From a phage, in NCBI GenBank assembly GCA_024683775.1, contig GCA_024683775.1_4106.1: 64,000 nucleotides of DNA; one strand, written 5' to 3'. Below are positions 4,758-57,574 of the stretch, piece after piece (positions within the stretch are counted from its first letter, which is position 1; every line of letters begins with the position of its first letter). The position numbers and the translations under genes were made by a program. The notes below the pieces were generated by a model, which worked only from the letters and a program-made list of their open reading frames with translations, was not told the origin of the DNA and searched no databases.

Positions 4758-5197
4758 CACTTTTGCTGATTCTAGGTTTATTAGTGTCATATTTCATTTT
4801 TCTTAACATCTTCTCTGATGCATCACATTTTGCATATGCTTCAGCTATTGCAAAACACGAAGGGATAAAGAAGTATATTCCTGCATTGTTATTCTCATAT
4901 ATGTACCATCCAAGGTACTTTACACTAGGTGTGTTTGACAAGTATGTATACGACGAAAAAGCACTCAATGAAATTGAATACTTTGTAAGAACTCATGCTA
5001 ATAACAATCCAAAATCATTAATTAACTTTACTGATAATCGTAAACGTGTTAGTATTAGAAGTGACTTGTATCCTACCAGTCACTTTCATCTAGGCGATTG
5101 TAGTGTGTACAGAGTTAGATACGAAAACTTACTGTTACCACCATCACATATAAGATACATAGAAAAATACTTGTTGAAATGTGTTGACTCCAAATAG
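4754..5197 (+). CDS. hypothetical protein with N-terminal TM segment
   Basis: 147-aa ORF, ATGA overlap. Confidence 0.45.
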   Translation: MTLLLILGLLVSYFIFLNIFSDASHFAYASAIAKHEGIKKYIPALLFSYMYHPRYFTLGVFDKYVYDEKALNEIEYFVRTHANNNPKSLINFTDNRKRVSIRSDLYPTSHFHLGDCSVYRVRYENLLLPPSHIRYIEKYLLKCVDSK

Positions 5198-5250
5198 TAA
5201 ATGGCAGTATAATAGCTTCGTACCGCAATAACTGACAAGAGGATTTAACG

Positions 5251-5709
5251 ATGGACGTATTAGCTACTCAATTCAAACGCAACGCAGAAGAACGTGAAGG
5301 TTACCTAAGTATCAGTGAAGTGGTTGAAGATGGATTCAAGCAGTACATTTTCAACAGTGCAATTAAACTGAAGCCAACAAAAGATTCACCGGATCGCAGC
5401 TTCACAAAGTGGATTGCATTCTGGGAAGAGTCACCAATTGCAATCGAAATGACTGTCATTACTACAGTACTGGAAACTGGTTACATCAAAGCAATTGTAG
5501 TTGATAAGAAAGTTCGCACTCTTGATGAAATCGGGACATACCCAGCACGTAACTCTAAAGTATTTGGGTGTTTAGTTGATGGTAAGTTTATGATTGAAAA
5601 AGATGCTAAGAACTATGTAATTGATAAACTACAAACCAGTGCTACTAAACAGGAAGTCGTAGACCAGAACGCAGTGGATGCTATTAAAAAGGCATGGGGA
5701 CTGAAATAA
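5251..5709 (+). CDS. hypothetical protein
   Basis: 152-aa ORF. Confidence 0.5.
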   Translation: MDVLATQFKRNAEEREGYLSISEVVEDGFKQYIFNSAIKLKPTKDSPDRSFTKWIAFWEESPIAIEMTVITTVLETGYIKAIVVDKKVRTLDEIGTYPARNSKVFGCLVDGKFMIEKDAKNYVIDKLQTSATKQEVVDQNAVDAIKKAWGLK

Positions 5710-8145: not shown

Positions 8146-9111
8146 GTGAAAAAGCTTGATTTAAATGCAATTTCTGAAGAAGTACTGGATGAGTGTTTTG
8201 CTAGTGAAGAAGTCAACGTATTAGAGGCTCTTGATTCCGTCGAAGAAGAAGAACATGACGGTCACAAGTTTGAGAAACCAAAAACAGGTATCAGCTTAAC
8301 TCGCCCTAAAGGGATAACGAATGAAATGCTCATCCAAGCAGTGCGTGATGGTATTGACGTTGAAAAGAACATTGACCTTTTGGTTCGCTACAACTATCCA
8401 ATGGTAGTAAGTGTTGCACGTAAGTGTACATGTTTTATCCCATTTGAAGATAAGATTTCTTATGGTGTTGAAGGTTTAATGCGAGCAATTCATACGTTCG
8501 ACACTACCAAAAATGTTAAGTTCATTACATATGCAACAACAACTGTGTACATGACAATCTATAACGAAAGTGCAGATGCTAATTATCTAGTGCATTTCCC
8601 ACGTTATATGAGTGTTAATAACATTTATGTGAAACGTTGTGTAGAAGAGTATCAAAGGAAACATGGTAAATACCCAACTCCTGAGATGGTGTCAAAAGAG
8701 ACTGGTATTGAGATTCAACACGTTAAGAATTGTCTAACTTACAGTAACACTTATGTAGCATTGAATATGAAAATGAGTAATGATTCAGAAAGTACATTAT
8801 CTGACATTGTTACTTCAGTTGAACCTGATTACAACTTAGGCGTAGAAACTGTCAGTACCCCACTGGTACAAAGTATTGCAGAAATGATGAGTAACCTATC
8901 TGCCAAAGACCGTGAATTGATTGAACGTGTACATGGTATTGGTTCTTATTCTGAACCCGAAACGCTACGAGAAATCATTGAGAGTGGTTTTGAAGATGAG
9001 AAGGGTAAGGTCATGACTGCTCGTTCTTCATTGCACCGTAAGTACTCTGAAGCAATGGAACGACTGCGTAAGATGGTTAAGACAAAAGGTTATGAGTTCG
9101 AAGATTTTTAA
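8146..9111 (+). CDS. sigma-70-family RNA polymerase sigma factor-like protein
   Basis: region 2-like block GLMRAIHTFD...KFITYAT and C-terminal region 4-like HTH (MTARSSLHRKYSEAMERLRK); GTG start with GGAG RBS. Confidence 0.6.
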   Translation: MKKLDLNAISEEVLDECFASEEVNVLEALDSVEEEEHDGHKFEKPKTGISLTRPKGITNEMLIQAVRDGIDVEKNIDLLVRYNYPMVVSVARKCTCFIPFEDKISYGVEGLMRAIHTFDTTKNVKFITYATTTVYMTIYNESADANYLVHFPRYMSVNNIYVKRCVEEYQRKHGKYPTPEMVSKETGIEIQHVKNCLTYSNTYVALNMKMSNDSESTLSDIVTSVEPDYNLGVETVSTPLVQSIAEMMSNLSAKDRELIERVHGIGSYSEPETLREIIESGFEDEKGKVMTARSSLHRKYSEAMERLRKMVKTKGYEFEDF

Positions 9112-9118
9112 GATTAAA

Positions 9119-9144
9119 GGGTTGACTTCGGTCAGCCTTTTTTT
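9119..9144 (+). terminator. intrinsic terminator (GGTTGAC-TTCG-GTCAGCC plus T7)
   Basis: stem-loop with UUCG tetraloop followed by T-run directly after the sigma-like gene. Confidence 0.7.
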
Positions 9145-9771
9145 ATGGGACAAATTTATTAATGGTGATACAATGATCTATGTACAATCACAATGACAGT
9201 ACTGGTACTGACAATCTTCCCCTACTTCACTTGAAAATGTAAAGGATAGATGAGCTTTTCATTGTAGCGAACAGCAAAAGAAACCCGTTAGATGTGGGCA
9301 TAGTTTGAACCCCTCACGGCAATGCGGCTGTATAAAGAACCACGTTAGGATAGCTGGTGGTTCCTCGATAGACATATAAGGATAACACCTTACGAATTAT
9401 CTAAGGGAGAGTTATCGAATTTTGTACAGGAAAGTTGCGTCCAAAATTTGAGTACTCACATTAAGTATTTGATTGCATAGATACTTAATGAAGATACACT
9501 ATGTTTAAAAGTGTAGACCGTCATATGAAACTGAAGTAGAGAGAAACAGGATGACCCGCTTTCGCACTCGTTATGAGTAATCTTCAATGCAATAGCTCTG
9601 ATACCATCAGCGTCAAATTTCCCTCCGTGCGGGGGGAAGAAAAATCCCTTCCTCAAATCCCGTCAATATTAAAAGTCCTTGACAGTTATGATTCATTCGC
9701 GTAGAATACGTAGTATTAGAAGCGAACAGACATCTCGAAGAGATGGATGATTAACCATTGAGGAATATCTA

Positions 9772-9981
9772 ATGAATTCAGTAATCTTTTTAATTATTGC
9801 TCTTTCACCACAATCTGGTGTACAAATCACCCCAATGAATTCAATGAATCAATGCATTGCAGTACGTGACAGTACGTATGAACAAGTAAACAGCGTTTCA
9901 CTTAGAACAGTTGGTGAAGAATTAATGTGGTGTTACAATAGTAATACTAAAGAAAAACTAATTGTTGGACAAACAGAATGA
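9772..9981 (+). CDS. hypothetical small protein
   Basis: 69-aa ORF. Confidence 0.4.
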   Translation: MNSVIFLIIALSPQSGVQITPMNSMNQCIAVRDSTYEQVNSVSLRTVGEELMWCYNSNTKEKLIVGQTE

Positions 9982-10208
9982 GTTATGGTGTTCGTTTTGA
10001 GATTCGTTCTATTGTTATCAATGACGAGAAACAAGCATCGTTGGATGGCGATATACGAGAACTATATCTATCATGTATCCGTGCGAAATCTGAAGCAGAT
10101 GCCTTAGTACAAATGTATAGTTTTAACTTTTCAAATGGATTCTATTTGGTACGAGTTATTGAAGTGAAAAAAGTACTTATTGGTTGTAGCATAGAAGGAT
10201 TAATGTAA
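9978..10208 (+). CDS. hypothetical small protein
   Basis: 76-aa ORF, ATGA overlap. Confidence 0.4.
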   Translation: MSYGVRFEIRSIVINDEKQASLDGDIRELYLSCIRAKSEADALVQMYSFNFSNGFYLVRVIEVKKVLIGCSIEGLM

Positions 10209-10209
10209 A

Positions 10210-11004
10210 ATGAGCACTATAGATGAATTGATTCGCCGGAATTCAAAATACTACGACCCATCAGAAATTGTCGGCAACATTACTAAATCTGAGTTCGGCC
10301 CAAATACTCGAAAACTCATTCATGTAATGTCACGTGATGGCTTTAAATGTGATTGTTGTGGTGAATCCAATGTGGTATTCACTTTACATAAGCACAGTAC
10401 TAAAGACCGTTATAAATTCAGACCTTATGTACTTAAAGGGAAACGCCTTGTACGCATGACGTTAGACCATAATGTACTGGACTGTCTTCAGGGCGGTAAT
10501 GATAAAGAGAACATGACCGCATTGTGTGAGGATTGTAACGCATTACGCCAGCATAAGTTTGCTGAGTACAGTGAGTTTAAGCACTGGTATCATAACGCTG
10601 ATCGTTCTATCGAGCCTGACGTTAACTACTGCTTCATTGAGTATATTAAGAATGCTAAAGATACGTACATTCTTAAATCAATGTCACCTATTACAGTGTT
10701 CCCTGAGAATCTATTCAGTACTATGCAGCGTGATTTTAAACGTGGTATCATTAATGCATTCAAACATTTAGACAAAGGTATCAAGCACTTTGAGGTGCAA
10801 TGCTTAAATGAAGGAATGAATCGTTTAGTACAAATTTACATGAAATCATTTATAGGTGTTGACACCGCACGTCTACCAGTATATAATTACTTTATTGAAA
10901 GCGAAGAAGGTGAATCACTTCGTGATTATGGTGAAAGATTTAATAATAAAGTTTTCACTGCAATCGCAAACGAGATTCATTACTATAAACCATATGTAAT
11001 TTAA
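10210..11004 (+). CDS. HNH endonuclease-like protein (putative homing endonuclease)
   Basis: Cys-pair plus His/Asn motif (CDCCG ... LDHNVLDC ... CEDCN) typical of HNH-type nucleases. Confidence 0.45.
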   Translation: MSTIDELIRRNSKYYDPSEIVGNITKSEFGPNTRKLIHVMSRDGFKCDCCGESNVVFTLHKHSTKDRYKFRPYVLKGKRLVRMTLDHNVLDCLQGGNDKENMTALCEDCNALRQHKFAEYSEFKHWYHNADRSIEPDVNYCFIEYIKNAKDTYILKSMSPITVFPENLFSTMQRDFKRGIINAFKHLDKGIKHFEVQCLNEGMNRLVQIYMKSFIGVDTARLPVYNYFIESEEGESLRDYGERFNNKVFTAIANEIHYYKPYVI

Positions 11005-17060: not shown

Positions 17061-17252
17061 ATGTTGATTTATCAATGTGATAACATTCGTGTTATGCAGC
17101 ATCCCTACTTACAAATCTTTGATGTGCAGCAGTATATGGAAGGTGATGATCCAAGAACCTATGGTCGTAAGTATGATTACTTCACTGTAAAGCAGTGTCG
17201 TGACATCAAAGAAGTACGACAATTAGTTCAAGAACTTCAAAATAAAGGTTGA
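17061..17252 (+). CDS. hypothetical small protein
   Basis: ATG at 17061 with GAGGA RBS. Confidence 0.4.
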   Translation: MLIYQCDNIRVMQHPYLQIFDVQQYMEGDDPRTYGRKYDYFTVKQCRDIKEVRQLVQELQNKG

Positions 17253-56797: not shown

Positions 56798-56805
56798 GGT
56801 AATAT

Positions 56806-56991
56806 ATGAATACATTTGAGTACTATACAAATAAACTATCTATGCCTGAAAGATCTCATCTCTATGTGTGGAGAAATGCGTATAAAAGCGGCAATAAACT
56901 TATACAAAGAAATTCCCTTACAGTGTGTACAAATTTAATTAAAGCAGAGTACCGCACATATATTGAAGTACTCAAACTGATAGCAATATAA
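56806..56991 (+). CDS. mini-protein paralog C7
   Basis: 61 aa; MNTFEYY...EVLKLIAI. Confidence 0.5.
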   Translation: MNTFEYYTNKLSMPERSHLYVWRNAYKSGNKLIQRNSLTVCTNLIKAEYRTYIEVLKLIAI

Positions 56992-56999
56992 GGTACTCT

Positions 57000-57179
57000 A
57001 TGCAAGAATTCTATATCTATAACCTCCAGCACAAAGATAGATACAACTATAATAAATTCCAAAGGTACTACACAGTCGGGAACAAAAGAGATAAAAAACG
57101 TTATCTACTCTCGTGTACAGTAGAAGCACAAAACGAAAAGTACACGTACAGAGAAGTACTTAAACTAATCTTAATCTAA
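57000..57179 (+). CDS. mini-protein paralog C8 (59 aa, below ORF-track cutoff)
   Basis: hand translation MQEFYIYNLQHK...YTYREVLKLILI. Confidence 0.45.
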   Translation: MQEFYIYNLQHKDRYNYNKFQRYYTVGNKRDKKRYLLSCTVEAQNEKYTYREVLKLILI

Positions 57180-57186
57180 GGTAGAC

Positions 57187-57375
57187 ATGAACACTTTTGA
57201 GTACTACTTCAATAAACTAAACCACATAGAACAAAGTATGCACAACTCATTTATTCAGCACCATCAATCATCTGCACATGGAATTAAAAATATATCGATT
57301 GAGATTATCACTACCCGTGTACTGTCATCTGAACGTTATATGTATATTGATGTACTGAAACTCATCTCTATGTAA
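57187..57375 (+). CDS. mini-protein paralog C9
   Basis: 62 aa; MNTFEYY...DVLKLISM. Confidence 0.5.
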   Translation: MNTFEYYFNKLNHIEQSMHNSFIQHHQSSAHGIKNISIEIITTRVLSSERYMYIDVLKLISM

Positions 57376-57383
57376 GGAATAAT

Positions 57384-57563
57384 ATGCAAGAATACTATAT
57401 AGAACACATAAGCATTAAAGACCGTTTCATGTACGACACCTTCGTGAAGTACTACAACCTGGCAACTAATAGTACTAAAAATATTAATCTCAATAGCTGC
57501 ATTCATCACGCACTAACAAAAGATAATCCCTTCAGGGAAATCCTCGCTCTCGCATCTGTATAA
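57384..57563 (+). CDS. mini-protein paralog C10 (59 aa, below ORF-track cutoff)
   Basis: hand translation MQEYYIEHISIKDRF... Confidence 0.4.
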   Translation: MQEYYIEHISIKDRFMYDTFVKYYNLATNSTKNINLNSCIHHALTKDNPFREILALASV

Positions 57564-57574
57564 AGGAAAACCAA

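Follow-up and report, generated by a model that had tools for sequence, protein, structure and literature searches.

A Candidate Gene for a Large Structured Non-Coding RNA Repeated in Jumbo Phages and Present in Enterobacterial Prophage Islands

The interval 9146–9668 of the analyzed jumbo phage DNA (a 64-kb stretch, referred to here as the window) is, in our assessment, rather probably a self-contained gene. Its product would be a highly structured non-coding RNA of about 440–460 nt that acts in trans as a folded molecule. The interval lies within a gap (9112–9771) devoid of credible open reading frames (ORFs), and the presence of a structured non-coding RNA in this gap is strongly supported by sequence comparison. 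Related copies were found in jumbo phages of several enterobacterial hosts and in prophage islands of bacterial chromosomes.

Organization of the Locus

The window matches Escherichia jumbo phages of the genus Asteriusvirus. The genomes of EC.P1 and Ecwhy_1 are 99.8–100% identical to the window, and 121Q and PBECO4 represent the same group. The gene upstream of the gap (8146–9111) is complete: it codes for a sigma-70-like factor in which regions 2 and 3 are present, and it ends in a stop codon at 9109–9111. The next credible ORF starts at 9772. Between them, the + strand has only two short frames, of 34 and 43 aa, and the − strand two more, of 38 and 66 aa; Pfam gave no match for any of the four, and the gap reported in the initial annotation was thereby confirmed. 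In the UE-S1 ortholog, a 1-nt indel breaks both the 66-aa antisense and the 43-aa sense frames. With a cut-off of 67 aa, the gap ranks third among the longest ORF-free stretches of the window, so it is unusual, not unique. The coordinates of all features are collected in Table 1.

Table 1. Predicted features of the gap and helices of the RNA model (window coordinates).
Feature	Position	Strand	Details and basis
Intrinsic terminator of the sigma-factor gene	9117–9145	+	Stem 9117–9126/9131–9140, loop TTCG, T run; read from the sequence
Promoter P1	9146–9174	+	TGGGAC 9146–9151 (−35-like), TG 9166–9167, TACAAT 9169–9174 (−10); promoter scan
Structured RNA core	about 9181–9640	+	Alignment A1 (62 copies), helix scans, per-pair statistics, pair count with controls
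P1 helix	9190–9197/9259–9265	+	
P2	9198–9201/9206–9209	+	One helix scan and reading of the window sequence; outside the tested model
P3	9222–9232/9242–9249	+	
Px	9254–9256/9266–9268	+	Pseudoknot with the P1 helix
P5	9271–9275/9327–9331	+	
P6	9285–9287/9317–9319	+	
P7	9337–9343/9357–9363	+	GAACCAC/GTGGTTC repeat
P8	9378–9380/9389–9391	+	
P9	9409–9412/9454–9457	+	
P10	9459–9471/9478–9490	+	13 bp, hexaloop
PK2	9472–9477/9588–9593	+	P10 hexaloop paired with a distal strand
P11	9494–9497/9513–9516	+	
PK3	9520–9524/9551–9555	+	Crosses P12 and P13
P12	9532–9536/9582–9586	+	
P13	9539–9543/9559–9563	+	
P14	9566–9568/9576–9578	+	
P15	9621–9626/9631–9636	+	
GC-rich hairpin CCCTCCGTGCGGGGGG	9621–9636	+	Identical with P15; without a T run
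Conserved tail (...CAAATCCCGTCAATA)	9641–9668	+	CAAAYCNCGTCA kept in phage and prophage copies
Near-consensus sigma-70 promoter TTGACA-17-TAGAAT	9679–9707	+	Promoter scan, 11 of 12 matches
Leader hairpin	9731–9745	+	Read from the sequence, after the second promoter
Ribosome-binding site GAGGAA	9760–9765	+	Read from the sequence

The opening bases of the gap (9113–9145) form the terminator of the upstream gene, and the record of UE-S1 has a terminator annotated at the equivalent site after the sigma gene. Promoter P1 follows directly. Its layout (TGGGAC, 14 nt, TGaTACAAT) is that of a sigma-70-type promoter with an extended −10 element, from which transcription is expected to start at about 9180–9182. 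The TGnTAnAnT motif is invariant or nearly so in 62 diverged copies. Within the window, this promoter class occurs three times in total, the other two occurrences being at 835 and 20346. A divergent RpoD-like promoter class, in which TGAAACG replaces the usual −35 box, was described in phage CBB and is enriched there upstream of DNA-synthesis genes (PMC5259590). P1 matches this class.

At the other end of the gap, the promoter at 9679–9707 is predicted to serve the genes from 9772 onwards. The sequence equivalent to the conserved tail reads TTGCCT-16-TATAAT in most other copies and looks like a promoter as well.

The terminator hairpin recurs in the window: the form AAAGGGTTGAC-TTCG-GTCAGCC followed by a T run is near-identical at at least eight sites, with further copies near 17244, 20832, 21618, 23693, 24377, 29001, and 29585. 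An extended −10 promoter (TGnTAYAAT) was found within about 30 nt after several of them (17270, 24404, 29028, and 29611). The recurring unit looks like a stereotyped terminator-promoter cassette placed between gene blocks.

Conservation and Coding Potential

The nucleotide differences between related phages were counted separately for the element and for its neighbors. In the part 9228–9675, the element differs by 6.9% from UE-S1 and by 4.5% from 121Q, and its substitutions are distributed over the three codon positions without bias (9/14/8). The corresponding value for the sigma gene (8500–9111) is 37% against UE-S1, with a strong codon bias (71/42/113); the alignment of this gene with 121Q is mostly gapped and does not permit a comparison. 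The ORF at 9772–9981 differs by 17% from UE-S1 and by 21% from 121Q, and a codon bias is present. Across genera, the nucleotide identity of the element is about 70% in a sensitive BLAST search, and a neighboring protein family retains 28–40% amino-acid identity among some of the same phages.

These data bear on the proposals of the initial annotation that the gap holds a decayed gene or an intron remnant. Short hypothetical ORFs are indeed annotated at the element in the WPEC5 record and as GAP32_503A, which could speak for a decayed protein gene or for small genes missed by annotation. However, these frames are not conserved, are broken by indels, have no Pfam match, and show no codon pattern. 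An origin from a self-splicing intron is opposed by the complete upstream gene, which has its own stop codon and terminator, and the group I and group II models found no match even at E ≤ 10. Because the segment is the best-conserved sequence of its neighborhood, more so than the coding genes around it, we rejected this whole group of explanations, which appears most improbable. In current annotations, such 650-bp gaps are left empty or filled with spurious short ORFs.

Secondary Structure and Covariation

The family set consisted of 112 full-length copies, 62 of which are below 94% identity and make up alignment A1. The helices were chosen from covariation scans and then examined pair by pair. 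The tested model comprises 16 helices and 84 pairs, including three pseudoknots. As controls, we used 500 column shuffles and alignments in which the partners were slid by 1–3 columns. Standard pairs occupied 95.6% of the cells, compared with 73.2 ± 0.4% after shuffling and 36–45% after sliding. Cells changed on both sides numbered 1095 (306 ± 16 shuffled, 120–157 slid), and the covariation score was 0.593 (0.194 shuffled, about 0.08–0.10 slid). No observed value was attained in any of the 500 shuffles. The test is biased in favor of the model, since the helices were picked on the same sequences, but the margins are very large. Changes on both sides were recorded at 67 of the 84 pairs. In P10, double changes occurred in 12 of the 13 pairs, with up to six pair types.

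The inverted repeat GAACCAC/GTGGTTC, pointed out in the initial annotation, is a true helix (P7) with compensatory changes. The GC-rich patch described there is a hairpin as well; its position had been given as near 9612 and is corrected in Table 1. A single-sequence fold recovered P7, P8, P9, P10, P11, P14, and P15. Whereas the helices vary freely, long invariant blocks occupy the unpaired and junction positions; examples from the 62 copies are GATGAG, GAAACCCG, CGGCAATGCGGC, GATAGACAT, AAGGGA, GACCGT, and ACCCGC. A hairpin module of about 30 nt (TACAATATAGATCCGTCCAAAATT) is located within P9, within P14, or rarely in both, depending on the copy (columns 531–566 versus 711–741 of A1). Peripheral elements shift their position in a similar manner in RNAs with a defined three-dimensional fold.

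G.U pairs are numerous on the + strand, and each of them would turn into an A.C mismatch if the opposite strand were read. Together with the invariant TGnTAnAnT motif, their frequency indicates that the + strand is the transcribed one, and the RNA is evidently read from its own predicted sigma-70-type promoter with an extended −10 element. The folding energy is uninformative for the choice of strand: the z values are modest and similar (−2.2 for the + strand and −3.1 for the − strand).

The same data were used to weigh whether the element functions as DNA, for example as a set of protein-binding sites for packaging, genome organization, or recombination, and has no role as RNA. The regular spacing and single orientation of the copies, described below, would suit a chromosome-organizing site. 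Nevertheless, the pairing is kept on one strand only, is long-range, and includes pseudoknots. Compensatory pairing of this kind on one strand implies that selection acted on a folded single-stranded molecule and not on binding sites in duplex DNA; an invariant promoter also precedes the element. We regard a purely DNA-level function as unlikely in the extreme, if somewhat less so than a decayed gene. With a promoter of its own, compensatory changes that preserve its structure, and no conserved ORF, the element has the properties expected for a stand-alone gene of a structured non-coding RNA. Of the three options named in the initial annotation, the structured RNA is the one that the invariant promoter, the very high conservation, and the compensatory changes bear out.

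3′ Boundary and Downstream Module

The distance from the −10 box to the conserved CGTCA is 386–546 nt in the 62 copies (median 461) and 440 nt in the window. In 30 of the 62 copies, a hairpin with a T run stands right after the core, which suggests that a discrete RNA is produced. The window copy has no terminator there, and its core runs directly into the GC-rich hairpin. An invariant GGGGGG tract (G6) follows the core in the 62 copies.

A second module downstream of the core is common to the phage and prophage copies. It consists of four parts: the GC hairpin, a TTGCCT-16-TATAAT-like stretch, either one or two hairpins whose loop is ACGAAGTGA, and a hairpin that covaries and has GNRA-like loops. 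The module lies about 60–200 nt past the core in L008, L067, L023, L085, L186, and other copies; its equivalent in the window extends from 9641 onwards. It may be a separate small RNA. In some paralogs, a bidirectional terminator comes immediately after the second module, with convergent genes beyond it, from which we conclude that the unit is independent of a downstream gene.

This arrangement is relevant to the question of whether the element is a long cis-acting leader, which would make the polymerase resistant to terminators or whose fold would control the downstream genes on the same strand. In the jumbo phages, the element is oriented in the same direction as the flanking genes, the terminator just past the core of many copies could be read through by a modified polymerase, and in at least one paralog (L085) the ribosome-binding site of the next gene lies so near the last hairpin that both must share a transcript. 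However, the next gene in the window has a separate strong promoter, placed after the element. Downstream of several paralogs and of the prophage copies, no gene runs in the same direction, and these copies end at terminators that face convergent genes or a repressor gene on the opposite strand. Moreover, the downstream genes are unrelated between copies. A leader function is therefore improbable in our view, though not to the degree of the DNA-level explanation.

At the 5′ end, 12 of the 62 copies (L026, L017, L013, L005, L065, and others) carry a GC-rich hairpin with a T6 run just after the −10 box, which is missing from the window copy. Its role could be to protect the 5′ end or to act in attenuation.

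Distribution in Jumbo Phages

BLAST searches with the region of about 9221–9676 gave matches in the jumbo phages CBB (Pectobacterium), GAP32 (Cronobacter), and BF (Serratia), and further matches in jumbo phages of Erwinia, Yersinia, Salmonella, Klebsiella, and Xanthomonas. Each jumbo phage record contained 2–5 matching places. At every locus retrieved, the element was situated in an ORF-free gap of about 600–700 bp. Two independent motif scans of IMG/VR followed by a profile filter showed 4–5 copies per complete Rak2-like genome; the total of 112 copies also includes those from scans of metagenome and bacterial-genome collections. Clustering revealed that the paralog clades are older than the genera. 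Neither the rest of the window nor the following 50 kb of EC.P1 contained another copy.

In all six genomes with five detected copies (CBB, GAP32, BF, Yen9-04, and two IMG/VR contigs), the five copies lie on one strand, 44–86 kb apart. Randomly placed points would show such a minimal gap with a probability of 0.001–0.02 per genome, although the genomes are syntenic and do not count as independent. This five-fold regular spacing on one strand is a feature of genome architecture.

No conserved protein partner was identified; the genes downstream of the copies are unrelated to each other. A CBB_524-like protein, encoded 3′ of one paralog, is absent from the window. The 264-aa ORF at 10210–11004 was found only in two close Asteriusvirus relatives among 11 related loci. 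It is annotated as an HNH endonuclease in WPEC5 and has no Pfam match; possibly, it is a mobile homing-endonuclease insertion. In phage TH47 (MT446416.1, 145719–147492), the ortholog of the locus aligns in three pieces and is about 670 bp longer than the query, which suggests an insertion at or adjoining the RNA gene.

Copies in Bacterial Islands

Full-length copies were also found in a Serratia fonticola chromosome and in Serratia sp., Silvania, Enterobacter chinensis, Buttiauxella, and unnamed Enterobacteriaceae. These are single copies in enterobacterial prophage islands, adjoining a tyrosine integrase or a large serine recombinase gene. They face a gene for a CI-like repressor or, in one case, two ParB/RepB-like genes. 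Two Serratia islands have in common only the element and about 160 nt on each side, with 86% identity, and their flanks are unrelated, which argues that the element moves as a module. The recombinase and ParB genes of Serratia are confined to a single island and do not represent a conserved partner. Among 5,426 complete E. coli genomes, only two have the element, which lies there within an island adjoining ffs, in a gap without annotation. None of 72,556 plasmids has one. No copy was found in an isolated temperate phage: the listed matches of the prophage-type copy in the phage collection are all jumbo phages, and a tally of all 71 records of that collection contained only genera of the jumbo phage group. 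The family links virulent jumbo phages with temperate islands.

Beside the RNA island of Serratia fonticola (L153), there are tandem rof genes, coding for a modulator of Rho termination, at 4775–5038 and 5227–5490. One of them may be a duplicate made by or carried with the island.

Comparison with Known RNAs

The initial annotation had proposed a covariance-model scan with Rfam and intron models and a tRNA search; no known family was matched. At the gathering score, Rfam 15 gave no match in the whole window or in seven paralog and prophage loci. At E ≤ 10, the region 8900–10000 yielded only snoRNA and sRNA hits at chance level (E ≥ 0.79). The scan detected the SRP RNA beside the E. coli island copy, which served as a positive control. 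ARAGORN found no tRNA or tmRNA gene in the whole window.

Individual candidates were rejected for the following reasons. Group I and group II introns have no core match in Rfam; moreover, upstream of the gap stands a complete gene, and the ORF downstream is equipped with a promoter and a ribosome-binding site of its own. The models of RNase P RNA, 6S RNA, and SRP RNA were not matched, and neither were those of GOLLD, ROOL, OLE, HEARO, and raiA in the window, paralog, or prophage copies. The motif CAGAUGAG-helix-CGAA resembles the hammerhead, but positions invariant in hammerheads vary here. Similarly, ACAG..AACCCGCUU is like conserved region V of RNase P, but no P4-like pairing fits. A ColE1-type RNA II was rejected on the basis of the 72,556 plasmids without a copy and of the Rfam RNAI model, unmatched on both strands. 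No mention of the element was found in the papers on RaK2, CBB, and fEgEco12. The family is absent from Rfam 15 and from the searchable literature; it may be present without a name among the more than 10,000 candidate viral RNAs catalogued in PMC10690425.

GOLLD and ROOL resemble the family in being non-coding RNAs of hundreds of nucleotides with many helices, pseudoknots, and conserved unpaired bases, encoded by stand-alone genes in phage or prophage DNA, and in having had no assigned function when discovered (PMC5737381). They are often found in phages and prophages of Firmicutes, whereas the present family occurs in Enterobacterales and their jumbo phages, with 4–5 old, evenly spaced paralogs per genome and no association with tRNA genes seen. 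A second parallel is provided by PA5oct, a Rak2-related Pseudomonas jumbo phage, in which RNA-seq revealed four non-coding RNAs (ncRNA001–004) of 236–619 nt in ORF-free regions; ncRNA002, of 451 nt, accounted for about 5% of the phage reads (PMC7318152). The number per genome and the location in ORF-free regions are as in the family, and the PA5oct RNAs are transcribed (PMC7318152); they have no described structure or family. An unfiltered profile search with ncRNA002, the only one of the four that was compared, showed no sequence similarity to the family.

Group I introns and RNase P RNA are similar in size (400–450 nt), in having long-range helices and pseudoknots around invariant junction nucleotides, and in their variable peripheral hairpins able to change position. 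The family differs from them in the lack of a covariance match and of flanking exons, and no P4-like or G-binding core was found.

Possible Function

Large RNAs rich in conserved helices and pseudoknots are rare, and earlier large ornate RNAs proved to be ribozymes, guide RNAs, or self-assembling RNA cages. In the reading that we favor, the RNA would be made from the promoter class that precedes DNA-synthesis genes in CBB and would be released from its template as a folded molecule, in keeping with the intrinsic terminator right after the core in about half of the family copies. Its target in trans may be a conserved component of the host or the phage, and its role either that of a ribozyme-like catalyst or that of a scaffold for an RNA-protein or RNA-only assembly. 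The 4–5 old paralogs of a jumbo phage genome could supply dosage, specialized variants, or both. The common strand and near-even spacing of the copies are left unexplained by an RNA that acts purely in trans.

This spacing is the chief reason to consider a role tied to position, such as that of RNA-primed replication origins. In such origins, the structured transcript would form a persistent RNA-DNA hybrid near G6 and prime the leading strand, like ColE1 RNA II or the R-loops of T4, and the five copies would be origins of the 350-kb genome. The small chance of the observed minimal gap at random supports this explanation, as do the invariant G6 after the core, the additional conserved hairpins downstream, and the bacterial copy adjoining two ParB/RepB-like genes. 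There are also precedents: T4 has several R-loop origins in its large genome, of which oriF and oriG use promoter-derived R-loops, and ColE1 RNA II requires a specific fold. Like the family, these are structured non-coding transcripts of several hundred nucleotides, driven by a promoter and with a G-rich tract near the 3′ part. Each copy of the element, moreover, has its own promoter, of the class concentrated before the DNA-synthesis genes of CBB (PMC5259590).

On the other hand, in 30 of the 62 copies an intrinsic terminator lies between the core and the G6 hairpin, so the RNA would be released before a hybrid could form there. Copies are absent from the plasmids, no GC-skew inflection was seen at the element, and the Rfam model of RNAI, the antisense of RNA II, was unmatched. 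Known primer transcripts require less than these 16 conserved helices with three pseudoknots and numerous invariant unpaired bases; in both complexity and conservation, the fold goes far beyond that of the ColE1 and T4 origin transcripts. Origin priming therefore seems a possible but rather doubtful role, clearly better placed than a leader. As our best guess, we rank the stand-alone trans-acting RNA first and the origin-priming transcript second. If the copies do mark origins, they would offer a first handle on the copying of the 350-kb Rak2-like genomes.

In a wider and more tentative interpretation, to which we give somewhat greater credence than to origin priming, the family could be a new class of large functional RNA with the complexity of a group I intron or RNase P. 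Such an RNA, used by enterobacterial phages during infection and lysogeny, might work as a ribozyme or at the center of a machine built of RNA and protein or of RNA only, with a position-dependent role in addition, for example in replication initiation or genome entry. Since the family occurs in phages of the tractable E. coli and its relatives, among them the isolates 121Q, PBECO4, phAPEC6, GAP32, CBB, and RaK2, its function can be tested directly.

Other ORF-Free Regions of the Window

Two other long ORF-free stretches were recorded. One, of 777 nt, is located at 56798–57574 (67-aa cut-off). The longest in the window, of 1312 nt, lies at 60373–61684, and the GC skew changes its sign there. 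In the XbC2, BF, and SNUABM_49 records, this region corresponds to the initial ~800 bases, and in fEgEco12 to about 353.4–354.8 kb, with two matching places found in the latter genome. The genome of fEgEco12 has 374,733 bp with a published terminal repeat of 20,993 bp, and the computed start of the repeat is near the match at 353.4–354.8 kb. The region 60373–61684 is probably a physical genome end or a repeat boundary.
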